From a virus (lineage: Duplodnaviria > Caudoviricetes), in IMG/VR virus record IMGVR_UViG_3300042814_000132, positions 1 to 40,114 of that record: a stretch of DNA of 40,114 nucleotides; one strand, given 5' to 3'. Positions 2,196-37,032 of this stretch are shown here, piece after piece (the stretch's first letter is position 1; each line of letters opens with the position of its first letter). Under the pieces are notes generated by a model. It saw only the letters and a program-made list of their open reading frames with translations. It searched no databases and had not been told where the DNA came from. A program made the position numbers and the translations under genes.

Positions 2196-3044
2196 CTACC
2201 GCGGCCACCGCCCTCCATAGGGATTGCCGAGCATCGTCCACAACGGCTTGTCATGCTTGCGGCAGTTGCAGGAGAGGCAGGCTGGTACAACGTTACTCAT
2301 CGTGTGGTGACCGCCTCTCGCGATAGGAATCAGGTGATCTTGCGTCAACGTCACACCCTCCGCTCCGCAATAGGCGCATACGTGGTTGAAGTATTCCTTC
2401 ACCTCCTGCCATTGCTTCGGGGTGAAGTCGTTCACCGGCACGCCCCGCAACTTTGCCCGCCGTCGCTGAGTATAGGGAATGTCATAACCGGGGTGCGCTT
2501 GACGGTGCCTGCGCTGCGTTGCCTTTAGCCGTTCGGGATGCTCCGTACGATACTTGGCAAGGGAAGCGCAGCGCGGTTCAGGATTCTCTGCGTACCGCCT
2601 GCGAGCCGCTGCGTTAATCTCATCGCGTCGCTTTGCGTAACGAGCATTCCGGTGCGCTTGCACGCGATCAGGATTCTCGTCTTGCCAACGCTTGACGCGC
2701 GCCACGATCTTTGCCGAGTTTTCCTTCCGCCACGCCTTAGATTCTTCGGTATGTGCCCAATAGTAAGTCCGACCTTCTGCCTGAATCCGTTCTAGATTCG
2801 CGGCCCGGTATTGCGCGCGCTGCTCTCGATGCCCTTCGTTGTACTTGCGGCGTCGCTCCTGCTCACGCTCAAGGTTTGCGTAATAGTGGGCTTTGCGCAG
2901 GAGGTTCTTGCAGTCCTTGCACCACGATTCGTAACCAGAGGATGTGACAGAGAATCGTGCGATGGGACGCATCTCTTTGCACTTCGTGCAGCAGCGCATT
3001 TCAGGCGGCGGCATGAGGGATGGCTGAGTGTATACTTCGTCCAT
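2196..3044 (-). CDS. HNH endonuclease; C-terminus fused to the displaced end of the upstream gene
   Basis: CTKC...CKDC finger, helical repeats, CAYCG...DHLIPIARGGHHTMSNVVPACLSCN; GGAGG SD supports ATG at 3044. Confidence 0.85.
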   Translation of the reverse strand: MDEVYTQPSLMPPPEMRCCTKCKEMRPIARFSVTSSGYESWCKDCKNLLRKAHYYANLEREQERRRKYNEGHREQRAQYRAANLERIQAEGRTYYWAHTEESKAWRKENSAKIVARVKRWQDENPDRVQAHRNARYAKRRDEINAAARRRYAENPEPRCASLAKYRTEHPERLKATQRRHRQAHPGYDIPYTQRRRAKLRGVPVNDFTPKQWQEVKEYFNHVCAYCGAEGVTLTQDHLIPIARGGHHTMSNVVPACLSCNCRKHDKPLWTMLGNPYGGRWPR

Positions 3045-3132
3045 CGGACACCTCCAACGTGTTCGATGCGCCCCGGCGGTGTTCGAAGCACCAAAGGGGC
3101 ATTTGCGTGATTCCAATGGGCTAAGTATAGCA
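3031..3132. promoter_or_regulatory. HNH leader: sense extended -10, two hairpins, convergent antisense -10
   Basis: TGCTATACT (minus, 3124-3132); hairpins 3070-3100 and 3042-3068; TATACT (plus, 3031-3036). Confidence 0.7.
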
Positions 3133-3133
3133 T

Positions 3134-3556
3134 CTACTGGCGAAACCGTCCATATGGGTTTCCTAGGAATTTACTCGCGTTTCGATCTGCCCCCCACGCA
3201 TTCGGCGGTGGTTCGGGCGCGGTTGTCGTCAGGACGCCCGAGGCGACGCCCAATGAGCTGACAATCTTTTCCTGCCGCGCGATTTCCGCGTCAACCTGCG
3301 CATACATGTCGCTGAGGTTCTTCGCTCGCCCTGAGAGGCGTTCGCTGTGCTCGGCGTGAATGTCGTAATCCGCCTCATCGCGCCGCGTTCCCATGAGGAT
3401 CGTAATCCCCGAACGCTTCGTGTACAGGTAGACGAGGTAGTTGGACCGTCCCGGCGTACTGTGCGCCTGCCAGAAGGCGGGGAGTTGCGTCGCCAGAACG
3501 CCATCGGGATCGCCTAACTCCGCGATGATCATCGCTTCCGTGAATGTGGCACTCAT
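3134..3556 (-). CDS. Putative head-tail adaptor/head completion protein
   Basis: Position after the capsid genes; helical ~140 aa. Confidence 0.55.
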   Translation of the reverse strand: MSATFTEAMIIAELGDPDGVLATQLPAFWQAHSTPGRSNYLVYLYTKRSGITILMGTRRDEADYDIHAEHSERLSGRAKNLSDMYAQVDAEIARQEKIVSSLGVASGVLTTTAPEPPPNAWGADRNASKFLGNPYGRFRQ

Positions 3557-3574
3557 CAGGCGACCCCTTCGTGG

Positions 3575-3832
3575 TTAGTGGGCTGGTGGCGCGGCGGGCG
3601 GCTTGGCCGGTGGCTCCGGTGGCTCTACCGGTTCCTCCTCATCCTCATCGGGCGCATCGGCGGGGACGATGGCACCCACGTCAACGAGGCGCTGGATATC
3701 GAGGCCGTCAAGGTCTTTCTCAGTCAGGCGGTCGCCCTCGCTCCAGTCGTCGACCTTCGTGTGGGCAACGCGGTATTCTTGCGGCTTCTTTTCCGCCTTC
3801 GCCTTCGGGGCGTCATCCTTCGGTGCTGGCAT
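3575..3832 (-). CDS. Small capsid-associated hypothetical protein with acidic/Pro-rich tail
   Basis: Follows the major capsid gene; GAAGGAG SD before ATG at 3832. Confidence 0.6.
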   Translation of the reverse strand: MPAPKDDAPKAKAEKKPQEYRVAHTKVDDWSEGDRLTEKDLDGLDIQRLVDVGAIVPADAPDEDEEEPVEPPEPPAKPPAAPPAH

Positions 3833-3880
3833 AATGGGATACTCCTTCACTCGCTCAGTAGTCAGCGGTCAGCCACACGA

Positions 3881-4894
3881 TCAAATGGTCATGATGACGA
3901 TGGAGCCAGGATAGAAGATCACTGGCCCGCCGTTCATACCATCGTGGACCTCGATCGTCCTCGGCACCTTCTCTTCGCCGCGGTCGATCACCTTCTGATA
4001 GACACCGGGGCCAAGGTCGGGGTTGTTAGCGTTACGGGTGAGACGGAACGCGCCAATGCGCTGCCCACCCGTGCGCTTGCCGACGAGCACCACCTTGTTG
4101 TTCGGCACGTAGAGAACGAAGGTGCCTGTGTCGTCAAGGTAGCCCTCATCGTAGATCGTGATGGAGGGCAGGCCTTCCATGTTGAGGACGCGGTTCACGT
4201 CCGCGAGTCCCGCGATGGTGCCGAGGCCACTCGGACGCCGCCCGAAGAGGTCATTCGCGTTCGTGTTGCTCATCAGGCTATTGAACGTGGCGCGATTCAT
4301 CACCGCTGTCGCGTCCGTCCCGAACGAGACGCCCTTCCCACGGGAGAGCAACTGCACGGAGCGGAAGTTCGCCAGGGGAACAGCGGTCGCGCTTGTCGCC
4401 CACGTGACACCCGCCGTGAAGGTCTGGGTGGTGTAGGAGTCCGCGACGCGCACCACGCCGTCCTCGCCGGCGACGGAGAAGGTGCCGGACGCGAGGAGTG
4501 CCCAGATGACCTGCTCCTGGCGATCGAGGCGGCGGCCCATCAGGCGCTCCTGCTCCGCCATGACGAGATCGGACACGTCGATCGGTGTGCCGAAGGTGCC
4601 GAGACGCCGGCGGCGGGTCAGGTCGTTCTCATCGAGGACCGAGAACTCACCGTAGACACCGGGCGACATCAGGTACTTCTTGCTGCCGACCTTCTTCACC
4701 CGGGGCGGCTCGCCATTGAGGCCACGGATTGCCTGGAGGCCCGTCCAGTTGTCCATCTGCTCCCATTCGAGCAGGTGGTTGTCGGACTCCTCGAAGGGCA
4801 TGATCGTAAAGCCGAGCCGGTTCTCGACCATGCGCGGGGTCTTCTCTTGCGCGATCAGCGTCAACTCCGCCGATGACGGGAATGCGAACGACAT
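3881..4894 (-). CDS. Major capsid protein (lambda gpE-like)
   Basis: 337 aa; follows protease and decoration genes; RRLDRQEQVIWALLASG and C-terminal GPVIFYPGSI resemble the capsid E family. Confidence 0.8.
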   Translation of the reverse strand: MSFAFPSSAELTLIAQEKTPRMVENRLGFTIMPFEESDNHLLEWEQMDNWTGLQAIRGLNGEPPRVKKVGSKKYLMSPGVYGEFSVLDENDLTRRRRLGTFGTPIDVSDLVMAEQERLMGRRLDRQEQVIWALLASGTFSVAGEDGVVRVADSYTTQTFTAGVTWATSATAVPLANFRSVQLLSRGKGVSFGTDATAVMNRATFNSLMSNTNANDLFGRRPSGLGTIAGLADVNRVLNMEGLPSITIYDEGYLDDTGTFVLYVPNNKVVLVGKRTGGQRIGAFRLTRNANNPDLGPGVYQKVIDRGEEKVPRTIEVHDGMNGGPVIFYPGSIVIMTI

Positions 4895-4988
4895 TGCAAT
4901 GCTCCTTTGTCATGCCGCCCGCAGAACCGGGCAACGAAACAGGGCGGCCGGCGCGGCCGCCCCTCAGATCAGTGTGTGCTGGCTATCT

Positions 4989-5717
4989 TCATCCAAATCT
5001 AACGGTTCCTGTCCCAACGGTGCCGTTCAGCAGCCGCCCCGCCATCAGCGTCAGGGCATTGGCATCGAGGCCGCTCAGGTCTTCGCATCGGAAGGTTCCC
5101 GAGATGAAGGCAGGAACGCTCTTGCGCGTCTCGCCGAAGTCTTGCCCGCCATAGGTGATGTTGCCCGATGCGTCGGTGGACGCCGCGTAGGCAAGGATCA
5201 CCTTCGGAATCTGACTGCCATCGGTCGCGACGGCGGTGTACTGCTTGTAGGTGCCCGCTGGCCCCGCCGTACCGGTGATCGTGGAGGCGTCCGTGATTGT
5301 GCCACCTGTCACGCCCGCGCCGCCTACCGTGAGTACTGTGGGGCGCGGGCCATTGATGGTCGAGGTCAAGGTGAAGGCGGTCGGAGTAGTGAAGGTGCCG
5401 CCCGTGGCGATATAGCCGAGCGGGCCGGGAGTCGCGGCAAGCATCGCGGCCGTCAACTGGGCCGCCGTCGCGTTGTAGGCGATGGCAGCGGTCGTGTTCG
5501 TGCCATCACTGAGCGTGAACGAACCAGCAGAGAGGGCACCGGAGGCGGTGAGCGTGTGGGTGGCGGTCGTGCCCGCGAGTTCACCGAGGATCGTGCCCTT
5601 GATGTACGAGACCGATGCGGGCAGGTTGACGGTGATCTCGCGGGCGTCTTCGGGGTCAATGTACGGTTCCAGGCGGAGATTATTGAACGTTGCAACGGGT
5701 GCAGTCGGCATTGCCAT
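4989..5717 (-). CDS. Head decoration protein (gpD-like) with inserted Thr/Gly-rich domain
   Basis: KGTILGE...YTAVATDGSQIPKVIL...SGTF pattern; lies between protease and capsid. Confidence 0.7.
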   Translation of the reverse strand: MAMPTAPVATFNNLRLEPYIDPEDAREITVNLPASVSYIKGTILGELAGTTATHTLTASGALSAGSFTLSDGTNTTAAIAYNATAAQLTAAMLAATPGPLGYIATGGTFTTPTAFTLTSTINGPRPTVLTVGGAGVTGGTITDASTITGTAGPAGTYKQYTAVATDGSQIPKVILAYAASTDASGNITYGGQDFGETRKSVPAFISGTFRCEDLSGLDANALTLMAGRLLNGTVGTGTVRFG

Positions 5718-5753
5718 GCTCCTTTCAGGGGCAACAGACGAAACGAATATTTC

Positions 5754-7082
5754 CTACTTGGTGGCGATGATCGTCTGACCGAGGGCCGTCTTCGCGAGGA
5801 GCTCCTTCCGCCGCTCCGCCGTCATCTCGCCGGGCTTGGCGGACTGGCTGCGATTGTTGAAGAGCGCCTGCGCGTCCGCATCGGTCAGCAGTTCCTCCGT
5901 GAGCACATGCGGCGGCCGCGCGGCGAAGCGTGCCTTGAGCGCATCCACACGGGTGCCGGTCTTCTCCTCCGTGCCGACCGCGAATGTGACCGTGCGCGGG
6001 TGGGCGGCGTCATCGTCGGCCGCGTCCGTGAAGGCGGCGATCAGGGACGCCTTCTCCGCGGGCAGGGCGCGCTTGGCGGCGATCTCAGCGTCCGCGAATA
6101 CCGCAGCTCTCTCCGCAAGGCGCTCCTTCTCCATCGCGGCGATGCGTGCCATCAGCGCGACCTTCTCCGGATCCGGGACAGCGTCGACTTTCGGCGCCTC
6201 CGCCTTCGGAGGATCGGCGGCGAACTGCGCCGTATCGCCCTCGCCCTCGCCGGCCAGCCATGCCATGAACTTCTCCATCCGCGTCGGTGCCTTCGTGTCC
6301 GTCATGCCCGGCTCCTTGCTCATCTGAGCACTTGCGGGGCACGTCGCCCCTAAACTCACCGCGTGATCATGCACCGCCTGTACGGCGTCCTGATCGGCCT
6401 TGTTGTGTCGCTTGCCCGCGAACTCCGCATAGGCACCGAAGAGCGCGGCATCCGCGACCCGTGGATTGAGGACGAGGCCGTTCTTGGCAATCCGCTTCGT
6501 CGCACGGTCGAAGGCGAGCGACACTTTGAGCGCCGCGCCACCGATCGTGTCATTGAGCCACTTCGGAATCGCGACCGTGCCCATCAGGGACGTCCCATCC
6601 TCTGCCATCTCCACCGCGCGCAGCTCCCCGAGCTTGCCATCGAGGATGGAGGGGCGGTGTTCGATGTCATTGGGAACGGGGGTGAAGGCAGCGACCACCG
6701 CTTTCGCCTCATCTGCCGTGAGGGAGAACGCCTTATCGGGGTACTCGCCTATCTCAAACACCTTCCCGCGGCGAATAACGAACTCGCCGTCATCGGTGCC
6801 ATCGCCAATGGAAAACGCGGCCATCTCCGCGACCTTCACATAGGTCGTCTTCGCAGTGACTTCCGTCGGTTGCCCCCACGTCACATCGCCACTCGCAATC
6901 GTGTAGGTCCGCTGATAGAGCGCGCTGTCATTGCCGCTATATGTCACCGTGGCATCATCAAAGTCGCGCAGCCAGAGATAGGCATCGCGGCCACCGAAGT
7001 CCTCTTGCAGTTCGGCTTCGAGGAACTGGCGAAGGTCGTTGTAGGTATAGCCCTCGGGCAGGCTGAATCGTGCGTGAGGCAT
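5754..7082 (-). CDS. Capsid maturation protease/scaffold (Mu-like)
   Basis: DIEH...G and VSLAF...GLVLNP motifs followed by an Ala/Glu-rich scaffold-like tail. Confidence 0.65.
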   Translation of the reverse strand: MPHARFSLPEGYTYNDLRQFLEAELQEDFGGRDAYLWLRDFDDATVTYSGNDSALYQRTYTIASGDVTWGQPTEVTAKTTYVKVAEMAAFSIGDGTDDGEFVIRRGKVFEIGEYPDKAFSLTADEAKAVVAAFTPVPNDIEHRPSILDGKLGELRAVEMAEDGTSLMGTVAIPKWLNDTIGGAALKVSLAFDRATKRIAKNGLVLNPRVADAALFGAYAEFAGKRHNKADQDAVQAVHDHAVSLGATCPASAQMSKEPGMTDTKAPTRMEKFMAWLAGEGEGDTAQFAADPPKAEAPKVDAVPDPEKVALMARIAAMEKERLAERAAVFADAEIAAKRALPAEKASLIAAFTDAADDDAAHPRTVTFAVGTEEKTGTRVDALKARFAARPPHVLTEELLTDADAQALFNNRSQSAKPGEMTAERRKELLAKTALGQTIIATK

Positions 7083-7091
7083 GGCAATCTC

Positions 7092-7253
7092 CTATTGCGT
7101 CAGCAGCAGGCCGAGACTGACGAAGAAGAGCGCAAGCGTCAGGACGCGCGGATGCCACGCCGCGAACGGTTCTCCCGCCCAGCCGAGGAGGAAGGCGAGG
7201 GCGAGGATAATCGCCGCGATGGCGAAGCAAATGCCAGCTTTGGTCGTACTCAC
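7092..7253 (-). CDS. Small two-TM membrane protein
   Basis: GTG overlaps the portal stop; two hydrophobic segments in 53 aa. Confidence 0.6.
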   Translation of the reverse strand: MSTTKAGICFAIAAIILALAFLLGWAGEPFAAWHPRVLTLALFFVSLGLLLTQ

Positions 7254-12973: not shown

Positions 12974-13252
12974 TCACTGCAATCCTTCCTGTCGCTCCAA
13001 CTCCTCCCGAAATGCGTCCGCCCGGATGCGGCGCGCCGTCTCGATCGCCATGCTGCCCTGAGGGCTCCCGGGGTCGGGCAGCGCCGCGGGTGCGGACGCG
13101 GACTCACGGCACATCGCCGTCACCGCGAGCGCCACGACGATGAGCGTCAGGGCGACGCCGAGCCGCGTGTCGAGCCGCCACGTCCGATAGAGCGCGTATC
13201 CACTCGCACCGAGGGCGACGAGCGATGCCAGGCCATGAATCCGCTTACGCAT
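12974..13252 (-). CDS. Small membrane protein
   Basis: Two hydrophobic segments; GGAGG SD. Confidence 0.6.
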
Positions 13253-13814
13253 GACCGATCTCCTCCCAAAGGGGCAGCGTGGGCGCATTCACCGCATCGC
13301 CGTGATCGTCCGGGAAGTTCAGGATCGCAAACTCCCCATGGATGCGTCGCGCCGCCGCGTCGTAGGCGCGAGCAGCCTCCTCGCGCGTGGTGAACGTGCC
13401 AAGCCGCACGATGCGATTGTTTACCGAGATGCTCGCCCGCCACTTCCCGCCCCTCGGAACTGACCCCACGCCGCGGAAGCCGCTCTTTGACGGCTTCTTC
13501 CGAGCATTGGCTGCGTTTTGCGTCCGATCTGCCAGACGGATGTTGCACCTGCGGTTGTCGAGCCCGTCGTGGTTCTCGTGATCCACCAGCACGCCCGGAG
13601 GCGCGCCGAGGAGAAAACGGTGCATCCGCATCGTCTGCGGCTTCGGCGATCCGGGAACGTGGAACCACGTCGCCGCATAAAACCCGCCGCATGCACTGTT
13701 GGCGGGATAGGGGCTCCACCGATATTTCGACACGCGCTCGTAGTCCTCTTCGTCAATGAGCGCAAAGAGCCCGGGATACTTGCGGCTGTGCAGGGGAATG
13801 CGGACAATGCCCAT
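13245..13814 (-). CDS. HNH-AP2 endonuclease
   Basis: [17 protein letters not shown] plus AP2 domain (FRGV...WRASI...[15 protein letters not shown]); GGAGG SD. Confidence 0.9.
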
Positions 13815-13914
13815 CTCAGGCCTCCTCGGAAGGTCTGGGCGCGTCCCGGACGGTTGCAGCCGTGTTACCGGGACATCGCAGCGATTTGACTGTCCCCATT
13901 GTCGCATTTTCCGC
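13803..13914. promoter_or_regulatory. HNH leader (sense -10, two hairpins, antisense -10)
   Basis: GCGGAAAATGCGACAAT on minus; GTCCCGG..CCGGGAC and CTCAGGCCT..AGGTCTGGG hairpins; GACAAT on plus at 13803-08. Confidence 0.65.
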
Positions 13915-13920
13915 TCCGCT

Positions 13921-14556
13921 TTACAAGCAGTTTGGCGCATCGCAATCGCCTAAATCCAACATCGGAGAGTTGATGCGGGCCATCCATCTGCGGATTTCCG
14001 GTACGTAGCGGGACGGCCGATATTTGATCGTCGTGCCGTCCGCGCTCTCGCAGCCGAGGCCGGCGGCATAGGCGAGGCGCTGCCATGAGTTCACCCGGCC
14101 CATGTGCAGCCACTTCCCGTGCGCCAACGCATCCGCTGCCGCCTGCCGGCCCTCGTCGCCCAGCTTGAATGCGTCGTCGCCGCCCATGAGGACCGCATCG
14201 AATGCATCCCACTCGATCGGATCGGGCTGCCAGCCGTTCTGCGCCGCGAGGGCGACCCGATAGCCCAGCGCGCGGATGCGCGGCAGCATCGATTCTGAGC
14301 GCAGCCAGGTGAAGAAGGCGCTCCCGACGACGTCCGGGGCGACGGCGAAGAGGCAGCCCGCCCGGTCGCGCCCATCGAGCCAGGTGAGGAACGCGTCATC
14401 ACCGACGTAGCGGTCACCGAAACAGCCGTTGTCGGCCGCCCACGGCATCCCCGCGGGGACGGCCTTGGATGACGCCGGCGAGAGCATCATGCCGATGCCG
14501 GGCACGTCATGGAGGCGGCGGTGCGCGGTGCCGGTGAGATACAACATCAGCGCCAT
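13921..14556 (-). CDS. DpdA/TGT-like transglycosylase (putative 7-deazaguanine DNA insertion enzyme)
   Basis: TGT-fold motifs in the expected order: ADNGCF, APDVVG, AQNG, LMGG, LHMG, SADGT; QueF-like gene nearby. Confidence 0.65.
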
Positions 14557-15071
14557 GACCTCCCATGCACGATGTCGCCTATCGTCGAGGGCCAGACGCT
14601 AAACTCAGCCGCCAAGTCCTTTTCCATTTCGCCTGCCTCGCGCCGGCGTCGAATCTCCTCCACTTGCGCGCGGGTCAACTTCGCCCCTTGATTGCGCTCC
14701 CCGATAGCGCCATTCGCGCGGCCCTTCTCTTGGCAGTCGAGCCGATTGTCTGCATTCGTCCCCGTGAAGAAGTGCGCGGGGTTGACGCATTTCCGGTAGT
14801 CGCAGCGGTGGCAAACGTTCAGGCCATCCGGCACGGGGCCGTTGGCAATGTGGTAGGAAACGCGGTGTGCTAACCGGGTCGCGCGCGTGCCATCCGTCTG
14901 CGAGCCGACGATGAACATGCCGTATCCATTGGGGTTGATATACCCCGTCCACTCCCAGCAGTGACCGAGTTCGGGGCAATGCGCGGGGATCGGGCCGTCT
15001 TTGTTGACCTTCGCGAAGAAGCGCGCGAGTAGTGACGGCGTGACGGCAAAATGGGTAGACTTGGAATGCAT
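14547..15071 (-). CDS. HNH endonuclease with C-terminal HTH
   Basis: CWEWTG...GYG...AHRVSY...VCHRCD...CVNPAH...DN, then AKLT...HTH. Confidence 0.9.
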   Translation of the reverse strand: MHSKSTHFAVTPSLLARFFAKVNKDGPIPAHCPELGHCWEWTGYINPNGYGMFIVGSQTDGTRATRLAHRVSYHIANGPVPDGLNVCHRCDYRKCVNPAHFFTGTNADNRLDCQEKGRANGAIGERNQGAKLTRAQVEEIRRRREAGEMEKDLAAEFSVWPSTIGDIVHGRSWR

Positions 15072-15165
15072 CTCAGACCTCCCGTGTCTGGGTGCCACGT
15101 CGGGGGGTGCTGGTAACACCGCCCCGGCATTCGTATTTCGCTCAGCCCATTGTAGCATTTTCCGC
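15056..15165. promoter_or_regulatory. HNH leader (sense -10, two hairpins, antisense -10)
   Basis: GCGGAAAATGCTACAAT on minus; GGTG-N7-CACC stem-loop; CTCAGAC..GTCTGGG over the SD; TAGACT on plus at 15056-61. Confidence 0.7.
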
Positions 15166-15235
15166 CCCTTCTCACAAACGATTTAGGCCATTGTGACGCT
15201 CTAAAGTCACACCGTACCCGCGCCCGCCTTGCCCT

Positions 15236-15562
15236 TTACGCCAGCGCCTCGACGACGAGCACGACGCCCGCCTTCTCGTGATGCGTCACCGTCATATCGA
15301 CGAAGTTCGGCTCGCACACCGCCCACATCGCCGCCCTGAGCGCGACCGCCAGCCCTTCCGCCGTGATCGGCTCCGCCGTCAACTCCTTCACTTTGGCGGC
15401 GAACCATTCGATCGTCACGCAGGTCACGTCCGGCTCGTACGTCGCCTCGATGTCGAAGGCGCACGTGTCCTCGACGAGCGCGCACCGGCCCGGCACGGCC
15501 TGCATTTTGAGCGTCGCCTGACTGATACCCGGATTCTTAAATGTCTCGATGATTTCTGTCAT
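15236..15562 (-). CDS. QueF-like T-fold protein
   Basis: IETFKNP start, conserved Cys (GRC), YEPD..CV and AE pattern resemble QueF; the NADPH-binding QueF motif is absent. Confidence 0.6.
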   Translation of the reverse strand: MTEIIETFKNPGISQATLKMQAVPGRCALVEDTCAFDIEATYEPDVTCVTIEWFAAKVKELTAEPITAEGLAVALRAAMWAVCEPNFVDMTVTHHEKAGVVLVVEALA

Positions 15563-15630: not shown

Positions 15631-16104
15631 TCATCGCGGCGGGTAGCCAAATGCTGCCTGCACCGGTTTCGGCTGCTCGCTCGGCGTGCCGCGGACGCGC
15701 AAGGCGCGCTCGACGTAGGTGAGCGCCCGTCCGTCGGCGATCATGTCTGTCGTCACGCGGATGACGAGCCATCCGAGAATGGCCGCCGTTGAGTGCTTTT
15801 CGCAGTCGTTCTCGACGCCCGCCCCGCGCACATGCGCCCCCTGGATCCACGTGCCGCCGTCGATGTCGATCGCGACCTTCACGCTCGGATATGCGAGGTC
15901 GTACCGCCACTGCCGCGCCGGCGCCGCGAACCGGTGTTGCCGCACTGGCTCGGACAGCCCAGCCTGGTGTATCTGGCCGAAGAGTGAGTCTTCGAGACAC
16001 GTGCAGACCCTGTGCCCACATGTCCGGCAGGGTGCCTTCGGATTGCGCGGCAACCGGTCGTGCTGCGGGGCATTCGGGATGTCGGCGAGCGAGATGCTGG
16101 GCAT
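15631..16104 (-). CDS. PD-(D/E)xK endonuclease (Vsr/DUF559-like; possible resolvase)
   Basis: QHRF...WRYDLA...VAIDIDGG...H...DCEK...LGWLVIRVT. Confidence 0.75.
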   Translation of the reverse strand: MPSISLADIPNAPQHDRLPRNPKAPCRTCGHRVCTCLEDSLFGQIHQAGLSEPVRQHRFAAPARQWRYDLAYPSVKVAIDIDGGTWIQGAHVRGAGVENDCEKHSTAAILGWLVIRVTTDMIADGRALTYVERALRVRGTPSEQPKPVQAAFGYPPR

Positions 16105-16589
16105 CAGGATTCGCCCTCCGAGAAGTTGAGTCGCGCGAACCGACCGAAATACTTGAGCGCCGCCGCGTCATATGCGCGGGCTGCTTCCTCGGCGGTGCTG
16201 AATCTGCCGAGGAAGATGAGCTTTCCGTCCACCCTGATACTCGCTTGCCACGCGCCGCTCCCCCGCTTATGCCGCGAGACCCCCTTGAAGCCGGATGTAC
16301 CGCTCCGATTCGCGCTCCTGTTGTGTCCGTTTTGTCGGGGTGTGCACACGCGCAGGTTCTCGCGACGGTCGTCGAGCGTGTTCCCGTTGCGATGGTCAAC
16401 GAACGCGCCCGGGGGATCGCCCATGAGAAAGCGGTGGAGGCGGACCGTTCGGGTGCCGTCGCGCCGTGCCGCGTACCAGTTGCCGCTGCCTTCCTTCGCA
16501 TGCCATCGATAGCAGAGCACGCGCTCCGCATCGTCCGCGTCAATGATGGCGACCTTGCCATGTGTGAGGGGTACGCATACAGTAGCCAA
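16104..16589 (-). CDS. HNH-AP2 endonuclease
   Basis: VDHRNGNTLDDRRENLR plus AP2 (FKGV...WQASI...EEAARAYD); AGGAGG SD before TTG at 16589. Confidence 0.9.
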   Translation of the reverse strand: MATVCVPLTHGKVAIIDADDAERVLCYRWHAKEGSGNWYAARRDGTRTVRLHRFLMGDPPGAFVDHRNGNTLDDRRENLRVCTPRQNGHNRSANRSGTSGFKGVSRHKRGSGAWQASIRVDGKLIFLGRFSTAEEAARAYDAAALKYFGRFARLNFSEGES

Positions 16590-16685
16590 ATCGGACCTCC
16601 TAAACAGGTTCGATGACGCCGGGCGGTGGCTCCAATCACCGTTCCGGCATTCGCTATTTATCTGCATAGATTCTACCATTTTCCG
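16578..16685. promoter_or_regulatory. HNH leader (sense -10, two hairpins, antisense -10)
   Basis: GCGGAAAATGGTAGAAT on minus; CGGTGATTGGAGCCACCG stem-loop shared with the 36.3 kb leader; TACAGT on plus at 16578-83. Confidence 0.7.
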
Positions 16686-16718
16686 CCCCGCTGTCATAGC
16701 GTTTTTCCGCATTGGGAA

Positions 16719-16808
16719 GCCGCACTTCGGGCATGGCGCTTTCGGGAGGCGCGGGCGCTTGTCCTTCGGTATCGCCTTCACGATGTCCTGCAGCGACAGG
16801 CTGACCAC
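16719..16808 (-). pseudogene. Displaced original N-terminus of the 15631-16104 nuclease
   Basis: 17/30 aa identical to that protein's first 30 residues; has its own GAGGAG SD. Confidence 0.7.
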
Positions 16809-17906: not shown

Positions 17907-18762
17907 TGCCTCTTTCCTCCATCGCCGCGTACCGCGCGGCGTCGGCCTCGACCGATCCGAGAATGCGGGCGTTCTTCGCCTCCGCCCGTTCGAGGCTCGT
18001 CGTGGGTGAGCCACGGGCCCCGCGGCCCGTAGCGGGCGCGGGTGCCCTCTGGGCGGCATGGGCAGCATCGCGTTTCAGGTAGTCCCGCGCCCACGCTCGC
18101 AGGTCCGGCAGCCAGTCGGCACGGCTGCGCCCCTCCGCCAGTCGGCGGTCCGCCCACTGCGGGATGATTTCGCTCGCCAGCTGTTCGGGCGTCGTCCCGA
18201 TGGCCGTGGCCTGGGTGGCGAGGTCGGCGTCAGAAAGCTGAGGAAAAGCCGGGGCGAACCGCTCGCTCGCGCGCGGGCGCTCGCGTGTGGGTGCGCCCGC
18301 GGGGGAGTTAATCTCTCTCTCTGGTATTCTTAATGGGTCTTGTTCAGTGGGTCTTGTTAATTGGGTCTTGTTCCGGTCTCGGAGCGGAACTAGTTCCGGT
18401 CTCGGAGCGGAACTAGTTCCGGTCTCGATTTGAGACTGGTTCTGATTCGAGACTAGTTCCGGTTTGGGACTAGTTGAGACCGTGACAATGTGATAACAGT
18501 TGCTCGCCCGCTTGCCTGACGTGATCGTCACGAGGCCCGCGTCAACGATTTTCTTGATCGCGGTCGCCACTTGGCTCCGGCCGCAGCCGAGCTCGCTTTG
18601 CAGCTTGCTGTACGAAGGCCAGGAGTCGCGCTCGCCGTTCGCGTGGCGCACAATGCAGGCATAGACTGAGAAGGCCGTCATGCCGATCTTCGGCAGATAT
18701 TCATCAATGACCTCGTTATCGATGTGAAACCAGCCGCGTTCGCGATCGTCTACGATCCTCAT
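17791..18762 (-). CDS. Replication initiator (N-terminal winged HTH)
   Basis: WFHIDN...VYACI...SWPSYSKL...LV...NCY; internal repeat region. Confidence 0.8.
   Translation of the reverse strand: MRIVDDRERGWFHIDNEVIDEYLPKIGMTAFSVYACIVRHANGERDSWPSYSKLQSELGCGRSQVATAIKKIVDAGLVTITSGKRASNCYHIVTVSTSPKPELVSNQNQSQIETGTSSAPRPELVPLRDRNKTQLTRPTEQDPLRIPEREINSPAGAPTRERPRASERFAPAFPQLSDADLATQATAIGTTPEQLASEIIPQWADRRLAEGRSRADWLPDLRAWARDYLKRDAAHAAQRAPAPATGRGARGSPTTSLERAEAKNARILGSVEADAARYAAMEERGNGTPDVRTGNGAHAGALPAGDRTGDEGPVVDIPERHAR
18310..18480. repeat. Iteron cluster, probable replication origin inside the initiator gene
   Basis: GTTCCGGTCTCGGAGCGGAACTA at 18370 and 18393, partial at 18416; TGGGTCTTGTT three times at 14-bp period; adjacent AT-richer tract. 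Confidence 0.75.
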
Positions 18763-21092: not shown

Positions 21093-21677
21093 CTATTCTT
21101 GCCATGCAATCCCTCGCACAATGAGATTGACGCGGCGTTGCGTGACGCCGTACGCCCTCGCCAGCGCGCGCTCCGTGAATCGGCCGGTGGCATGACTCGC
21201 ACGGATCTCCCGTACGGCCTCCCACGTCAGCTTCGCCGCGGGATGATCGACGCCCCGGACAATCTTCTCGGGATGCGTGCGGACGCCGCTGCGGTCGCCG
21301 CAGGGCCGGCATTCCGGATGCATGTGCATGCCGTGGCGTTCGCCCTGCGCGTTGCGCCCCTTGGCGATCATGTCCGCCTTGTTATCAGCGTCCGTCCCCA
21401 GCCAGAGGTGTCCCAGCCGGGGATGGCGGACGCCGTTCACTTCGTACCAGCCCGCATCGTCGTTCCGCACACACGCGGGGTTGTCGCAGGTATGGAGCAC
21501 CTGCAAGCCGTCGGGTATCGGCCCGCACCGGAGTTCCCATGCTGCCCGATGCGCCCGTACCGACTCGCCGTTGCGACTGATGCGCCCATACCCGTTGCCG
21601 ATCGTGCAGCCCGTCCAGAGCCAGCACGTATCCGTCTTGTCCACCGCCGCCCAGAACCGCATTGCGAACGCTGTCAT
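21093..21677 (-). CDS. HNH endonuclease with C-terminal HTH
   Basis: CWLWTG...GYG...AHR...VLHTCDNPACV...HLWLGT..DN; translationally coupled, no hairpin leader. Confidence 0.9.
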   Translation of the reverse strand: MTAFAMRFWAAVDKTDTCWLWTGCTIGNGYGRISRNGESVRAHRAAWELRCGPIPDGLQVLHTCDNPACVRNDDAGWYEVNGVRHPRLGHLWLGTDADNKADMIAKGRNAQGERHGMHMHPECRPCGDRSGVRTHPEKIVRGVDHPAAKLTWEAVREIRASHATGRFTERALARAYGVTQRRVNLIVRGIAWQE

Positions 21678-26930: not shown

Positions 26931-27365
26931 ATGCGACTTGCTGATGCCCTTACCTACACCCACAAGGCCGGGTACGCGCTCCCCTCCGGGGGGTGCGTGA
27001 CCGTCTGGCACGAGTTTCGGGAGGGTGTGCAGTTGCACATTCGCATCCGCCGCGGCGCTGCGGGTGAGAGCGAATGGCACTTCGCCAATACTCTGGCAGA
27101 CGTACCGGTGACGATCGCCATGCAGGGCATCCACGTCCCGCCCGATGCGTGGGAGCACCGGCTCTACGTCGGGAGCACGACCGCGCCTCATAGCATCGAC
27201 CGGCTGGAGATCATCAATGCCGTCGCCGCCGGGCAGGTGCCTCGCTTCTTCGCCGACCTCCTGAGCGATGCGACCCACGCGGGCATTCTGCGGGTGAAGG
27301 AGTGCGCGGAGATCGCCCGCACCGGCGCCGTTGCCGCCTGCCTGCCCCCCGTGGTGTCGGCGTGA
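26931..27365 (+). CDS. Hypothetical protein
   Basis: GAGGAG SD; closely packed in the operon. Confidence 0.55.
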   Translation: MRLADALTYTHKAGYALPSGGCVTVWHEFREGVQLHIRIRRGAAGESEWHFANTLADVPVTIAMQGIHVPPDAWEHRLYVGSTTAPHSIDRLEIINAVAAGQVPRFFADLLSDATHAGILRVKECAEIARTGAVAACLPPVVSA

Positions 27366-27595
27366 GCGCGCCGAAGCCGGAATACACCGTCACCTGGCGC
27401 GAGAAGGGTAAGCGGCAGCAGGAGGGGCCGTTCACGGACTTCCTACAGGCCGAGGGACGCGCCCGCACGCTCTCGCGCGAGCACCGCACGCCCATCTACA
27501 TCACATCCGTCGTGCATTGCTTTCATGCCCGGTGGGAAGGCGAGAAGCAAACGCTCGGAATGGCGATGCATTTGCCAATCGGTGAGGAGCCGTAG
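27362..27595 (+). CDS. Hypothetical protein whose C-terminus is duplicated beyond the HNH
   Basis: GTGA overlap; last 33 aa match 28093-28194. Confidence 0.6.
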   Translation: MSAPKPEYTVTWREKGKRQQEGPFTDFLQAEGRARTLSREHRTPIYITSVVHCFHARWEGEKQTLGMAMHLPIGEEP

Positions 27596-28096
27596 ATGCA
27601 AACGGAGAGTAAACTGTTCGGTCTCAATGCCGCGCAAATCGCACGCTTCTGGTCGAAGGTTGATCGGAGTGGTGGAGCGTCCGCGTGTTGGGAATGGCGC
27701 GCGCATCGCAATCACCATGGCTATGGGCAGTTCGGCACCGGAAAGCGGAGGAGCGGCAGCAAGGGGACGGCACTCGCACATCGCATTGCCTATGCGCTTT
27801 CCTATGGTGACTTCCCTGCCACGCTCGATGTCTTGCATCGGTGCGACAATCCGTGCTGCTGCAATCCAGCGCACCTCTTCCTCGGCGATCACGACGCCAA
27901 CATGGCAGACATGGCCGCAAAGCATCGCATTCCCTACGGCGAATCCCACTATCACGCAAAACTTACCGATGCTCAGACGCGGGAAATCCGCAGGCTGTAC
28001 GGCTCCGGTCGCATGCTCCAGCGTGAGATTGGGCAGCGATACGGGATCGCGCAACAGACGGTCAGCAAGATCGTCCGCGGAAAGAACCGACGATGA
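27596..28096 (+). CDS. HNH endonuclease with C-terminal HTH
   Basis: RFWSKVD...CWEW...GYG...AHR...VLHRCDNPCCCNPAHL...AN. Confidence 0.9.
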   Translation: MQTESKLFGLNAAQIARFWSKVDRSGGASACWEWRAHRNHHGYGQFGTGKRRSGSKGTALAHRIAYALSYGDFPATLDVLHRCDNPCCCNPAHLFLGDHDANMADMAAKHRIPYGESHYHAKLTDAQTREIRRLYGSGRMLQREIGQRYGIAQQTVSKIVRGKNRR

Positions 28097-28194
28097 AGAT
28101 CGAAACCGTGGTGCGCCGCATCTGCGCGCGCTGGGAGAACGACACGCAGACGCTCGCGCGGGTGCTGCACCTGGAGATTGGTTCGGACTTGTAG
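28093..28194 (+). pseudogene. Displaced C-terminus of the 27362-27595 gene
   Basis: 14/33 aa identity, ungapped, same stop position. Confidence 0.7.
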
Positions 28195-28814: not shown

Positions 28815-28816
28815 AG

Positions 28817-31603: not shown

Positions 31604-31613
31604 CGGGTCTCCC

Positions 31614-31644
31614 TGTGGATAACTTCCGTATTTTCTGTGGATAA
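31614..31644. promoter_or_regulatory. Two perfect DnaA boxes
   Basis: TGTGGATAA (TTATCCACA on minus) at 31614-22 and 31636-44. Confidence 0.6.
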
Positions 31645-31664
31645 GCCTGTGTACGGACGGTGGA

Positions 31665-32927: not shown

Positions 32928-32944
32928 GGAGATCTCCTCGGATG

Positions 32945-33343
32945 TCAGTCGGCGATACAGGCCACCGTATCGAGCCGCACGCGTGGCTTGTCGGCGTGCT
33001 TCGCGGTGATGTGCGAGGCGGGGACGATCTTGAAATCAACGTTGAGGCGGTAGGCCGTCACCATCCACGCGCCGAGCTTGACCTGATCACTGGCGACGCG
33101 CTGCGTGACCGCGCTCATCTCGGTTGCCCAGCGATCCGTGTCCCACTGCGCCACGCTGCCGTAGCGCGCCTCGAACTGCGCGTCCGGGAGGACAACGCTG
33201 ACATCGACATCGCGCGGTTCGTCGCTGTCGAGCACCGAACCGTGCAGGTAGACCGGCGCGCCGAAGCGTATCGCGATCTGACACGCCCAGCCGTGGAGTT
33301 GCAACTTCAGACGGCGCACGCGCTCGTCGGGAGTCTCATGCAT
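32945..33343 (-). CDS. Minimal nucleotidyltransferase-domain protein
   Basis: VYLHGS...RDVDV Pol-beta superfamily motif. Confidence 0.7.
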   Translation of the reverse strand: MHETPDERVRRLKLQLHGWACQIAIRFGAPVYLHGSVLDSDEPRDVDVSVVLPDAQFEARYGSVAQWDTDRWATEMSAVTQRVASDQVKLGAWMVTAYRLNVDFKIVPASHITAKHADKPRVRLDTVACIAD

Positions 33344-33722
33344 CGACCAATGCTCCATCACGCAGCCACCCGTGCCACTCCCCTTCATAGTTGATCGAGG
33401 GGTTGGCAGTGACCTTCGGCGGTATGCCCGTGCGCGTCCAGCCGGGACCGCCGCCAGACGAGGGATGGTCGATAGGCCAAAGGATTCCCCGCTCCTCATC
33501 TGCACCGTTGCGCCCTGGTAGCTTCACCACGAGACAGCGGCCGTCAGGGCGCTTGCAGGTGTCGGGATGACGACAGCCATCGTCATAGAACATCGCCCCG
33601 ATGGGCATGGTCTTGAAGGTGTATTCGCCTCCGTCCGGGCCGCGATAAATGGGATACGTCCCGTTCCCGTCATCATGCGGACGGTGACCGGCTTGCTCGA
33701 GCATGATGCATTGCCAGGCCAT
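33336..33722 (-). CDS. DUF6527-like protein
   Basis: WTRTG...TANPSI...WHGWLRDG. Confidence 0.6.
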   Translation of the reverse strand: MAWQCIMLEQAGHRPHDDGNGTYPIYRGPDGGEYTFKTMPIGAMFYDDGCRHPDTCKRPDGRCLVVKLPGRNGADEERGILWPIDHPSSGGGPGWTRTGIPPKVTANPSINYEGEWHGWLRDGALVDA

Positions 33723-33805
33723 CAGGAGCCTCCTTCAATGCCAGTGCCCAAGGCATACTTTTCGGGAAAAACGCGGCGAAATCTGCGGGAGTGTCTGTAC
33801 CCTTC

Positions 33806-34048
33806 CTAGGTGCCTTCCTCGGTGTCTTCGATGCGGTTCTCGACCTGCTGCACCCGCGCCTCAACCTCGACCAGCTTGTCTCGGAGCATCTGCAACGCCT
33901 GCCCCGCCGCGTTGATTGCCGCGTCGTTACGCGGGCCGCGTGCGTCGTGCTTCACCTCAGCGATGATGGTGTCAAGCGCCCCATACCCCTTCTCGATCTC
34001 GGCAAACTCGTCGCTGGGAAGGTCGGTCGTGTTCTGCATCTTCGCCAT
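33806..34048 (-). CDS. Small coiled-coil protein
   Basis: AAGGA SD; heptad pattern. Confidence 0.55.
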   Translation of the reverse strand: MAKMQNTTDLPSDEFAEIEKGYGALDTIIAEVKHDARGPRNDAAINAAGQALQMLRDKLVEVEARVQQVENRIEDTEEGT

Positions 34049-34093
34049 CGTTAAGTCCTTTCAGGAATGCCCGTAGACGTCACCAGTGCCACG

Positions 34094-34303
34094 CTACGGC
34101 GTCTTCTTCTCTAGCAGGGCTCGCTCCCCCTCCGGCGTGATCTGCACGATGTCGCCGCCCAGGAAGCGCAGGTAGCCGCGCCGTTGCAGGCTGGCGAGGA
34201 CCGCGCGCTTCACTCCCAGGTCGCGTTCTTTGGCAGTGTTGTATTTTCCTTTGAGCTTGAGCAGCACGGCACGTTCATCATTGGTCATGTTCGGATCGTC
34301 CAC
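34094..34303 (-). CDS. Small winged-helix-like protein
   Basis: LASLQRRGYL...ITPEGERAL; AGGAGG SD. Confidence 0.5.
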   Translation of the reverse strand: MDDPNMTNDERAVLLKLKGKYNTAKERDLGVKRAVLASLQRRGYLRFLGGDIVQITPEGERALLEKKTP

Positions 34304-34306
34304 GCG

Positions 34307-34393
34307 CTACCTCCTGTGCTTCCACCAGTCCCATACGCCCCACAGCAGGCATCCCGTAGCCAGTCCGAGCATGAGAACATCGGAAAAGTGCAT
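34307..34393 (-). CDS. 28-aa single-TM peptide (not in the ORF track)
   Basis: MHFSDVLMLGLATGCLLWGVWDWWKHRR*; AGGA SD; fills the gap between two genes. Confidence 0.5.
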   Translation of the reverse strand: MHFSDVLMLGLATGCLLWGVWDWWKHRR

Positions 34394-34403
34394 CGCGGGT
34401 TTC

Positions 34404-35099
34404 CTATGTGTCCTGCTTCGGCTTGTTGTCCACAACGATCCGCTGCTCCGGTATGCGCAAGGTGGCTTCTATCTCCACAGTCGGCTCCTGGATAGCGGGC
34501 GCTGCATCCACGTGTGTGGCGGCCTCGGTGACGCCGATGCGCTCCTCGTGATCTGCCCGCTGCTCGGCGGCCACATCCGCGCGGTCCTGACTCTCATCGG
34601 CGCGGTGCTCCGCCACATCCGCCCGTGCGACTGCCTCGCGTGAGAGGGCTTCGCTGCGATCATTGCGCCGCTCTTCTGCCGACACCCGCTCCTCGACCGC
34701 GCTTAGGCGGAGGATGACATCCTCACGCTGCTCCGCCGCCGCCGTCCATTGCAGCGTGCCGACGCGCACCAGGCCAGTGAGCACGCCCGCCTCGAAGATC
34801 ACCAGGAGGGCGCGCACCCCGGCGCGATAGACGAAGGGAAGCACGAGGGGCAACCAGCCGAATGTCTGCGCCGCGCCGACGCCGAAGACGATGCCGAGCG
34901 TGGCGAACAGGCCGAAGAATTCCCAACCCAAGAGGTCAGGCTTTCGCCACGGGAAGATGAGCGCGAGGCCCATCGAAAGAAACAATATGGCCGACAGGAC
35001 GATCAGCGCCCTACTGACGGCCGACTCAGGAAGCAGGATCACGGCGATGACGATCAGACAGGCAATGATGGTACGGAAGAATACGCCCCTTCTAGTCAC
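34404..35099 (-). CDS. Multi-TM membrane protein with C-terminal coiled coil (start uncertain)
   Basis: About four hydrophobic helices, then an E/R/A-rich coil. Confidence 0.6.
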   Translation of the reverse strand: MTRRGVFFRTIIACLIVIAVILLPESAVSRALIVLSAILFLSMGLALIFPWRKPDLLGWEFFGLFATLGIVFGVGAAQTFGWLPLVLPFVYRAGVRALLVIFEAGVLTGLVRVGTLQWTAAAEQREDVILRLSAVEERVSAEERRNDRSEALSREAVARADVAEHRADESQDRADVAAEQRADHEERIGVTEAATHVDAAPAIQEPTVEIEATLRIPEQRIVVDNKPKQDT

Positions 35100-35325
35100 C
35101 ACGGTTCTGCCCCTTGTCATCGCTCTCCACGGGTGCGAAGAGGCGGGATGTAAGGTAGTTCGCCCGCCGCTCCAAGTCAAGGAGGCGTCGTGCCCGCCGT
35201 TTGTAGTCTTCTTCCCATTCCACATGCAGCCGCTCACGTGCCGCGACCTCATCATCGGAAAAGAGCGGAACAGGCAGAACCCCCTCCTGCCTGCGACGGA
35301 AGAGCCGTTCGAAGATGCCGCTCAT
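35092..35325 (-). CDS. Hypothetical protein
   Basis: ATGA coupling. Confidence 0.5.
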   Translation of the reverse strand: MSGIFERLFRRRQEGVLPVPLFSDDEVAARERLHVEWEEDYKRRARRLLDLERRANYLTSRLFAPVESDDKGQNRGD

Positions 35326-35636
35326 ACCTTTGCTGCTTTCTCTGCCGCTGCCGCGACGCGTTCCCCGACGCCGAGCAGGGAGTTCGAGAGATCCCGTTCC
35401 TTCGCCATGTCCTCGCGGTATTGTCTGCGCAACTCCACAATCTCGGCGTGCAGCTTGCCGTTTTCCGTGCGCAACTCCGTGACGAACTCATCGTGCGCGC
35501 GGTCGGTGCGTTGCAGCAGGAGTTGCGCGACTCTGCCGAGCGCGAGAAACAATGCCGAGACCGCCGCAACTAACATTGTAATTATGTATGGGCTGTCGGT
35601 GGCGGCAGCAATGACAGGAACGCAGTGGTCATGCAT
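35322..35636 (-). CDS. TM plus coiled-coil protein (holin/antiholin-like)
   Basis: One TM helix then coiled coil; AGAGGA SD. Confidence 0.5.
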   Translation of the reverse strand: MHDHCVPVIAAATDSPYIITMLVAAVSALFLALGRVAQLLLQRTDRAHDEFVTELRTENGKLHAEIVELRRQYREDMAKERDLSNSLLGVGERVAAAAEKAAKV

Positions 35637-35761
35637 CACATCGTTCCTCTTAGCCGAGGGTGGACACGGAGATTGCTCGCCAGATTGGCGCGTGCTGGTG
35701 CCGTTGGTGTTGCTGGCACTTGTCGTGGCGATACTCGTCGCAGATTCCGCATCCCAATGCG

Positions 35762-36247
35762 CTAGGGCCAACCCCCGCACGATTCACGGAGTTTATGCGC
35801 ACGCTCTCGCTGCCTGGCGGCCCTGCATGCACGGCAACGGCGGGCAACGCGCCCGTCCGGTCGGTGTTCGAGATAGGTGTTCTCCGGGGTGAACGCATGC
35901 CCGTGCTTGCAATGCGTCTGCTTCTGCCCGTGGGTTCTGCCCTTCGCCGCCGTGTCCCTGTTATTGTCCGCTACCGTCCCTAAGAAGAGATGTGCCACTT
36001 CATAGCAGGACGGATTGTCACATTTATGAAGCACCCATTGGCCATCAGGAATCGGACCGTTGGCTTGCTCCCAGACGAGGCGGTGAACCCTGACGAGTTT
36101 GCCGTTCTTCCCGCCATACTGGCGCAGGCCGTACCCGTCTCTGTCTCTTGCTTGCGCCCATTCCTTGCACGGAACGCTTCGCCAATCGTCTGCGGGGTTG
36201 TCGGTGAGGGGGAACGCCAACTGATGCACGCGTGCTACACTCGCCAC
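35762..36247 (-). CDS. HNH endonuclease
   Basis: DGYG...VHRLVW...VLHKCDNPSC...HLFLGT..DN; THCKHGH...CRAC; AGGAGG SD before GTG. Confidence 0.9.
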   Translation of the reverse strand: MASVARVHQLAFPLTDNPADDWRSVPCKEWAQARDRDGYGLRQYGGKNGKLVRVHRLVWEQANGPIPDGQWVLHKCDNPSCYEVAHLFLGTVADNNRDTAAKGRTHGQKQTHCKHGHAFTPENTYLEHRPDGRVARRCRACRAARQRERAHKLRESCGGWP

Positions 36248-36336
36248 GTCGAACCTCCTAGATAGGTCTCGACAACGCCGTTCGGTGGCTCCAATCACCG
36301 GGCGGCATTCGCTATTTGACTGCCTACATTATAGCA
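36233..36336. promoter_or_regulatory. HNH leader (sense -10, two hairpins, antisense -10)
   Basis: TGCTATAAT on minus at 36328-36; TGCTACACT on plus at 36233-41; near-identical to the 16.6 kb leader. Confidence 0.75.
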
Positions 36337-36357
36337 GATTTAGCCCATTGGGATGGG

Positions 36358-37032
36358 CTAGGGATGAGATCCGCAGCCCCAGTATTTCGCCGGGTTGATC
36401 GCCTTCAAGAACTGGCTCGTGTAGTACGCCTGGGCAAAGTTGCTCTTGGGATGCACGCCGTCCCAGCCGTACGGGATGCCAATCCAGTAGACCGGCATCC
36501 CCGTCATATCAACGTAGGTTGCCCCGTACTGCTCTGCCTTCGCCTTGTTCACATCCTCCAGCCCCTGCCACACGGCCTGGAAGTCCTGCGCCCAGTTGAA
36601 CGGCGGGGGCTTGACGCTCTGCTGCCCCTGGGCTGCGAGTGGGGTCATGCCGACGACGATGATCTGTGTCGGCTGCACGGCCATTGCGAGGATCGCGGTC
36701 ATCATCGTATCCCAGGCAGCCGCGTAGGTGGTCGGGTTATTGAGGTCATCGGCATAGAAGAAGTCATTCGTGCCGTACTCGATGATTAGCTTGGCGGGCG
36801 TGTACGGCACGATGCGGACGGGGACGCCCGTGGCGCCGCTGTTCCCGGTGATGGTTTGCAGCGTGGTGCCGCCGATTGCGCCTCGGGTGAGGTCGGCCGG
36901 GCTGACTCCCTTGCCGACCCGCGTCCAGCCCATAACGTTACAGACGCCGTCAAACCAGCGACCGCCGCCATAGATGGTTGGATCCATCGTGCTGTCGCTG
37001 ACGCTATCCCCGTAGACTTCAGCCGTCGGCAT
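36358..37032 (-). CDS. SGNH/GDSL hydrolase (probably virion-associated esterase)
   Basis: GDS, GTND and DGVHP blocks. Confidence 0.85.
   Translation of the reverse strand: MPTAEVYGDSVSDSTMDPTIYGGGRWFDGVCNVMGWTRVGKGVSPADLTRGAIGGTTLQTITGNSGATGVPVRIVPYTPAKLIIEYGTNDFFYADDLNNPTTYAAAWDTMMTAILAMAVQPTQIIVVGMTPLAAQGQQSVKPPPFNWAQDFQAVWQGLEDVNKAKAEQYGATYVDMTGMPVYWIGIPYGWDGVHPKSNFAQAYYTSQFLKAINPAKYWGCGSHP

Follow-up and report, generated by a model that had tools for sequence, protein, structure and literature searches.

Spare gene ends beside free-standing HNH nuclease genes in a temperate soil phage

Introduction

How can a nuclease gene come to lie inside the coding sequence of another gene when neither an intron nor an intein is there to take it out again? 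This question is raised by IMGVR_UViG_3300042814_000132, a virus record (Duplodnaviria; Caudoviricetes) of 40,114 nucleotides (nt) and ca. 63% GC that is present in two soil metagenome runs and was analyzed over its whole length (the window). Run X1 may be its source, and no RNA data set was listed as containing it. By gene content it represents a temperate phage, encoding portal, capsid, terminase, serine integrase, RecT and holin. An earlier note on this DNA had pointed to five free-standing HNH nuclease genes, each flanked by two diverged copies of the terminus of a neighboring gene, and had proposed that every such cassette enters its own cut site, repairs the gene with a recoded terminus and leaves the old end behind. 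All five duplicated pairs (sites a to e) were found where the note had placed them. At sites a and d, the cassette lies inside a gene: the stranded old end is identical to nuclease-free alleles, the end now in use is foreign and yields a full-length protein, and no splicing element is present.

Results

The host gene of site d (27362–27595, plus strand) encodes 77 residues, with 27497–27595 representing a replacement C-terminus. The HNH gene (27596–28096, plus strand; HNH_3 and helix-turn-helix domains) begins directly behind the host stop codon and is followed by the old C-terminus of the host gene (28099–28194, plus strand), which is identical at 31/31 residues to a nuclease-free allele, P0008. 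Compared with the P0008 protein, the upstream part of the site matches at 44/44 residues and the remnant at 31/32 whereas the copy in use matches at only 14/32. A second, different nuclease-free allele from metagenome run X2 joins position 27496 to 28111. The cassette spans at most 27497–28098 (≤602 base pairs (bp), of which 99 nt are replacement codons and 501 nt HNH frame). When P0008 was used to search a metagenome collection, nothing but the same phage or distant relatives came back. An ATG overlapping the HNH stop codon opens the stretch 28093–28194 (plus strand), and the stranded end could yield a 33-residue peptide.

Cassette a occupies 2226–3200 on the minus strand (975 bp) and consists of 22 replacement codons, a leader and an HNH gene fused to the last nine old codons. 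The host gene (3134–3556, minus strand; 140 residues compared with 142 in relatives) is likely a head-tail adaptor, judged from its position and an Atlas lead (PF26075 in 22% of one cluster), and its last 22 codons (3200–3134) form the replacement end. HNH a (2196–3044, minus strand) combines a zinc-finger N-terminus with PF01844, and takes its last nine codons and stop (2225–2196) from the old end of gene a. A 321-nt contig of run X2, which stems from another study, shows 0 differences to 3338–3201 (138 nt) and to 2225–2083 (143 nt) and joins both flanks via 40 other letters in place of the cassette. Read by hand on the minus strand, these 40 letters hold the frame into the remnant NPYGGRWPR. 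Further, five of five gene a homologues have ends closer to the remnant than to the copy in use, one of them marginally. Nuclease-free alleles had been expected to continue into the remnant and not into the copy in use, and this is what was found at both a and d.

Host proteins are of normal length compared with relatives at site d (77/77 residues) and site a, as well as at b (208/207) and c (157/154). At all five sites the HNH gene adjoins the stop or start of the host frame and is not read through as part of the host protein. No Rfam family was matched at E ≤ 1 anywhere in the window, leaders included, the open reading frames (ORFs) of the cassettes gave no intein match, and no ribozyme core or splicing domain was found around the HNH genes. 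Together with the lack of room in cassette d, this upholds the view that neither introns nor inteins are involved. Two inteins are present elsewhere in the phage (8927–11740 and 18825–21017, minus strand), one in a terminase-like gene with LAGLIDADG and intein N-terminal matches, the other as an intein-like insert around which RecT is encoded in two stretches. Overall, nuclease-based selfish elements number about a dozen in this phage.

The two copies of each pair have diverged considerably. Identity amounts to 6/9 residues and 17/27 nt for pair a, 4/8 residues and 11/24 nt for b, 16/30 residues (17/30 with the GTG start read as Met) and 55/90 nt for c, 14/33 residues plus the stop and 62/102 nt for d (27494–27595 compared with 28093–28194), and 3/5 residues plus the stop and 12/18 nt for e, corresponding to 46–67% at the nucleotide and 42–67% at the amino acid level. 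Protein similarity, said in the earlier note to exceed DNA similarity, does not do so in general: nucleotide identity is about equal to or above amino acid identity in four pairs, with 46% compared with 50% in b, and in a, b, c and d conservation is lowest at third codon positions. Since nucleotide identity is not clearly below amino acid identity, the spare ends are diverged alleles (42–67% amino acid identity) and not synonymous recodings. The copy in use had also been described as AT-richer at a, b and d. This is clearly so at a (third-position GC 11/23 compared with 0.83 in core genes, P = 1e-4) and weakly so at b (11/18, P = 0.025) and d (23/33, P = 0.048); at c, the copy in use is not AT-rich (25/30).

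In unanchored shuffles, only pairs c and d exceeded chance (0/300 DNA and 0/200 protein shuffles each) while a, b and e did not. When the comparison was anchored at the stop codon, pair a was better than 386/386 other ORF ends and pair b was equalled by 5/386. The pairs were absent from the 20 largest families given by an exact repeat search.

At sites b and c, homologues of the host genes were used to judge which copy is the native one. The DpdA-like host gene of site b (13921–14547, minus strand) has last codons that run into the leader and promoter of the HNH gene. HNH-AP2 b (13245–13814, minus strand) carries a 17-residue tail past the usual AP2 end, where its paralogue HNH c ends, and this tail contains the likely old end of gene b (13292–13245). 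Among 150 homologues returned, 124 had a usable tail; 85 of these favor the remnant, 28 the copy in use and 11 are ties. The remnant also fits the C-terminal profile of the family, with 35 of the 67,042 9-mers of the window scoring as high compared with 75 for the copy in use. At site c the duplication is N-terminal and takes in the ribosome-binding site. The old start of gene c (16719–16808, minus strand; 30 codons) has its own ribosome-binding site, is in frame through the leader into HNH-AP2 c (16104–16589, minus strand, behind a shared leader) and sits at the place expected from the operon. The host gene (15631–16104, minus strand), a Vsr-like nuclease going by the name one source gives to its relatives, begins with 30 codons (16104–16015) that, with a ribosome-binding-like site, represent the replacement start and overlap the HNH stop codon. 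Two of three close homologues favor the remnant. Homologues thus support a replaced terminus at b and lean towards one at c.

Site e is less clear. The SGNH hydrolase gene (36333–37032, minus strand, a span that includes 25 nt past the stop) has a possible but unproven replacement end, and the HNH region (35737–36247, with the HNH gene itself at 35762–36247, minus strand, behind a shared leader) contains a stretch, 35779–35737, resembling the end and 3′ flank of gene e. Whether this is a replaced gene end is about evenly balanced. On the DNA level, the segment from −18 to +25 around the stop was better than 386/386 other stops, and the two stops are in register. Most of the similarity, however, lies past the stop codon, 13/386 other ORF ends are equally good as peptides, and site e was not picked by the blind test described below. 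The stretch downstream also resembles, by eye, the 5′ part of the shared leader. A trace of an older leader or a hairpin behind the HNH gene, and not a replaced gene end, has slightly less than an even chance of being the correct explanation. Each of the two copies (36340–36356 and 35745–35760, minus strand) contains a small hairpin, the four-base loops being mutually reverse-complementary and one stem pair swapped, as seen by eye. No homologue of gene e was found in the viral contig search.

A sixth locus, h0, had been overlooked because half of it lies outside the window. Here, HNH h0 (1–684, plus strand, its start just outside the window) is antisense to the structural operon, and a stub of 17 codons with its own ribosome-binding site (681–734, minus strand) copies the start of a 70-residue gene beyond the HNH gene (L009:9698–9910, outside the window; identity 8/17 residues and 32/51 nt). 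By its anatomy, h0 appears to be a sixth cassette. The proposed set of five thus stands for a and d by nuclease-free alleles and for b by homologues, with c leaning the same way and e weak, and would need to be extended by h0.

A further feature is shared by several cassettes. The HNH genes a, b, b2, c and e, which comprise three architectures, have a common leader of ca. 130 nt on the minus strand (3041–3152, 13811–13954, 15068–15206, 16586–16722 and 36244–36364), with weaker versions at 38481–38601 (plus strand, upstream of HNH h38) and L122:1066–1150. Leave-one-out models, built from the other five leaders, recovered each of a, b, b2, c and e at E values of 2e-7 or better; h38, when left out, was not recovered. 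Among 96 other HNH loci, no convincing copy of the leader was found, with two weak matches at E ~0.003. The leaders carry a promoter-like site with an extended −10 and, by prediction, two hairpins, of which the second covers the ribosome-binding site. At a and b the −35 region falls within the last host-gene codons; the predicted promoter of leader a has its −35 element inside the replacement codons and its extended −10 at 3132–3124. The hairpin over the ribosome-binding site was predicted in 5/6 folded leaders, with z scores of only −1.4 to −2.0, and in a sequence-based consensus fold no more than 5 pairs of the first hairpin reappeared, with almost no covariation. HNH d and h21 are without leader and abut or overlap the upstream stop codon.

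A 10-bp motif, AATGGSCTRA, was seen at 3115–3124, 15142–15151, 15183–15192 and 36340–36349, always in an HNH leader beside the −10 site. It occurs 4 times in the window compared with 0.11 expected, for a pattern that was chosen after it had been sighted, and is possibly a repressor site.

To estimate how often the layout occurs, 105 loci related to two of the HNH types were surveyed. After removal of nine loci (two from the same phage, one duplicate and six partial) and of four with short flanks, 92 remained, and the threshold was set at the best of 276 mismatched pairs. Seven of the 92 viral HNH loci scored above this threshold, with 8 exceeding the 99th percentile and 14 the 95th, whereas none of 160 same-locus control pairs, taken from windows not centered on genes, did so (Fisher P = 7e-4). 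Applied blindly to the window, the test picked 3/9 HNH genes (c, d and h0) and 0/33 non-HNH genes. Because it detects only three of the nine, the resulting frequency of ca. 8% of phage HNH loci is probably a floor, although it reflects flank similarity alone and one of the loci could represent paralogous tails. All eight top loci (L110, L098, L070, L034, L060, L033, L026 and L037), which lie on unrelated viral contigs, when read by hand, have the copies at gene termini, and their sense and antisense layouts include an old end fused to the tail or head of the HNH protein, a stub behind the HNH gene and an antisense HNH gene.

Cultured phages show the same arrangement. Two of 12 loci picked by hand from the top matches passed, namely those of the mycobacteriophages SkinnyPete (KU935729, L128) and Megiddo (MN807249, L127), and four other phages carry the cassette of SkinnyPete (gp53) at 99% identity. 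Awesomesauce and Misha28 are likewise cassette-bearing. Piper2020 (MK494120, L135) is nuclease-free, and the end of its methylase gene matches the remnant at 64/72 nt compared with 44/72 for the copy in use. In DocMcStuffins, a second methyltransferase is annotated just behind the HNH gene. The layout goes with HNH genes and is not special to this phage.

The window holds nine HNH genes, and an identical but longer record, G001, adds a tenth; all of these frames are open. Their domain matches are to HNH, HNH_3, AP2 and helix-turn-helix, and HNH b, whose HNH_3 score lies below the Pfam cut-off, matches PHROG 99 at E 6e-35. Four HNH genes lie outside the six loci described above. HNH b2 (14547–15071, minus strand) has the shared leader, and its stop codon overlaps the start of gene b. 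HNH h21 (21093–21677, minus strand) overlaps the stop of its upstream neighbor, HNH h38 (38598–39317, plus strand) is antisense between two tail-fibre-like genes, and the tenth gene (G001:C1:1151–1687, locus L122), also antisense in the tail region, follows the leader-like stretch mentioned above. The insertion sites of b2, h21 and h38 may be intergenic.

A 108-residue gene without family match lies upstream of the DpdA-like gene, with HNH b2 between them (13921–15562, minus strand); we take the two neighbors to be a possible 7-deazaguanine DNA-modification pair. Direct repeats of 23 bp inside the replication initiator gene (18354–18469) are likely iterons of the origin. A genome collection search gave a single distant capsid match and nothing else, and when viral contigs were searched with genes a, b, c and e, all matches came from the same phage or from distant relatives.

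Discussion

We propose that HNH cassettes with a spare terminus spread by homing, a reading that we consider probable on the basis of sequence comparison. The nuclease is predicted to cut at or near the nuclease-free junction and to spare the diverged copy. A first cassette would have arisen when a nuclease gene and a piece of its neighbor from a distant phage repaired a break, using homology at one edge and a short, imperfect join at the opposite one; a RecT/Bet-type annealing protein encoded by the phage might serve in such a repair. From then on, the stranded old end could act as the second homology arm, allowing the cassette to be copied into every nuclease-free allele, while the new end would keep the host protein whole without rebuilding the cut site. 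The nuclease would be tolerated inside the gene because it brings along its own copy of the gene end. Nuclease levels may be kept low by the predicted promoter and the hairpin over the ribosome-binding site in five cassettes, and by overlap with the neighboring gene in the case of d and h21.

Several observations weigh against this proposal. Sequence searches of the PDB matched no characterized (solved) homing endonuclease. For four of the ten HNH genes of G001 (b2, h21, h38 and G001:1151–1687), no duplicated end was found. No nuclease-free allele was recovered for b, c, e or h0; that run X2 showed no joints for b, b2, c, e and h38 carries no weight in view of its patchy cover. At site c, one homologue (P0018) is nearer to the copy in use than to the remnant (18/27 compared with 16/27). 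Site a is not a clean insertion because 40 nt of the old allele are gone. The same-locus control windows of the survey were placed without regard to gene centers. Finally, T4 free-standing nucleases are reported to cut hundreds to thousands of bases from their own gene (PMC2988022).

The P0018 match, the missing 40 nt and the remote cutting in T4 would suit an explanation in which the layout is a by-product of mosaicism: an intergenic HNH gene and the end of its neighbor are imported together from a distant phage by imperfect RecT-type recombination, for which the phage has a suitable protein, the old end remains as a scar, and cutting by the nuclease takes place at another site or does not occur. 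That the new ends resemble natural foreign alleles also fits. Against this stands the restriction of the layout to HNH genes, as neither the other 33 genes of the window nor the 160 control pairs show it. Mosaicism would further have to account for five or six recurrences in one genome with three HNH architectures, for flanks that are identical to the nuclease-free alleles on both sides at a and d, and for one cassette that is 99% identical in phages of 43 and 57 kilobases. We therefore regard mosaicism, the main rival of homing, as unlikely.

Duplication on the spot, where insertion of the HNH gene gave rise to a second host end and divergence of the copy in use followed in place, would account for the direct duplication around the insert, generally the usual mark of a target-site duplication. 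Drift, however, predicts the opposite of what is seen: the unused copy is the one identical to relatives (31/31 residues at d and no difference at a), whereas identity is 42–55% for the copy in use, the third-position GC of which looks foreign at a. Since the unused copy is native at a and d, divergence on the spot is ruled out there, and as an explanation overall it is very improbable. Least credible of all are hidden self-splicing introns with the remnant as true 3′ or 5′ exon, whose removal would restore the old allele at d almost exactly, given the lack of an Rfam match, the at most 602 bp of cassette d being taken up by replacement codons and HNH frame, the 40 nt of old exon gone at a and host frames that are already full length unspliced. 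Introns, inteins and duplication on the spot were consequently rejected as origin of the cassettes.

Should the estimate of ca. 8% hold, many HNH genes annotated as intergenic would be of the spare-end kind. In that case, stub ORFs and odd HNH tails in annotations would be explained, a route for terminus exchange between phages would exist, and the target of a nuclease could be predicted from the duplicated segment alone. A broader set of statements could go either way when taken jointly: that spare gene ends offer homing nucleases a general third way of residing in coding sequence, in addition to introns and inteins; that it accounts for at least 1 in 13 phage HNH genes annotated as intergenic; that protein termini are swapped between distant phages; that in this lineage a mobile promoter-hairpin leader is shared by unrelated HNH architectures; and that gene c is translated by coupling to a stub-HNH fusion from the old start. 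The cultured pair of filled and empty alleles on Mycobacterium smegmatis makes the mechanism directly testable.

Comparison with known systems

Reviews of seg and mob, the genes for free-standing homing endonucleases in T4-like phages, describe these nucleases as lying between genes and cutting at sites far from where they are encoded, and hold precedents for the ribosome-binding-site hairpin and the start/stop overlaps (PMC2988022, PMC2993671). The cassettes described here resemble them in lacking an intron or intein, in combining HNH with a DNA-binding domain, in being many per genome and in their start/stop overlaps, with the predicted hairpin over the ribosome-binding site as a possible further parallel. 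They differ in that cassettes a and d, as seen from the nuclease-free alleles, lie inside coding sequence. The T4 mobA insertion at genes 39/60 is reportedly one where a nuclease gene left the host protein to be made in two assembling pieces. It is listed in a table of PMC2988022, and the insertion of mobE in nrdA of Aeh1 is mentioned in PMC3653736. Both share with our cassettes a nuclease gene within a coding region without splicing; there, the host protein assembles from two pieces while here a hybrid frame yields the whole protein, without the old end. Hidden HNH domains of the ShiLan type in actinophage methylases (PMC11855218) are likewise homing HNH sequences in a phage gene without recognizable splicing element. 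ShiLan, however, forms an in-frame, read-through portion of the host protein, whereas the host frames in our phage stop or start beside the HNH gene and have a duplicated terminus.

The string 'duplicat' has 0 occurrences in the available text of PMC2988022 and PMC2993671, and the duplicated-terminus layout was not found in that of PMC12724721, PMC13096335, PMC10448857, PMC2248197, PMC3653736 and PMC11855218. No description of the layout in a phage was found in the literature searched, which covered few subscription journals and does not establish absence from print. The present analysis contributes two exact nuclease-free alleles, five or six cases in one phage, the leader common to several cassettes, a frequency estimate with controls and a filled/empty pair in culture.

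The closest parallel is found in fungal mitochondria, where mobile endonuclease ORFs make 'gene hybrids', as in atp6 of Allomyces and in atp6, atp9, cox2 and nad3 of Glomus (PMC3630166). These four Glomus hybrids occur within a single mitochondrial genome (PMC3630166), so repetition within one genome, for which the earlier note gave no phage precedent, is not new; nor is the layout a speciality of the phage, as it is common among phage HNH genes. In both systems, a nuclease gene lies in a gene end, a foreign terminus is joined in frame, and the native end is stranded and matches close relatives. Fungal gene hybrids involve LAGLIDADG or GIY-YIG nucleases, are mitochondrial and affect only C-termini of conserved core genes, with cleavage having been shown. 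The phage cassettes, by comparison, carry HNH nucleases of three architectures, affect C- as well as N-termini of small genes in sense and antisense orientation, and are predicted to cut. The phage cassettes work like the fungal gene-hybrid elements without being members of that group, from which they differ in nuclease family and host.

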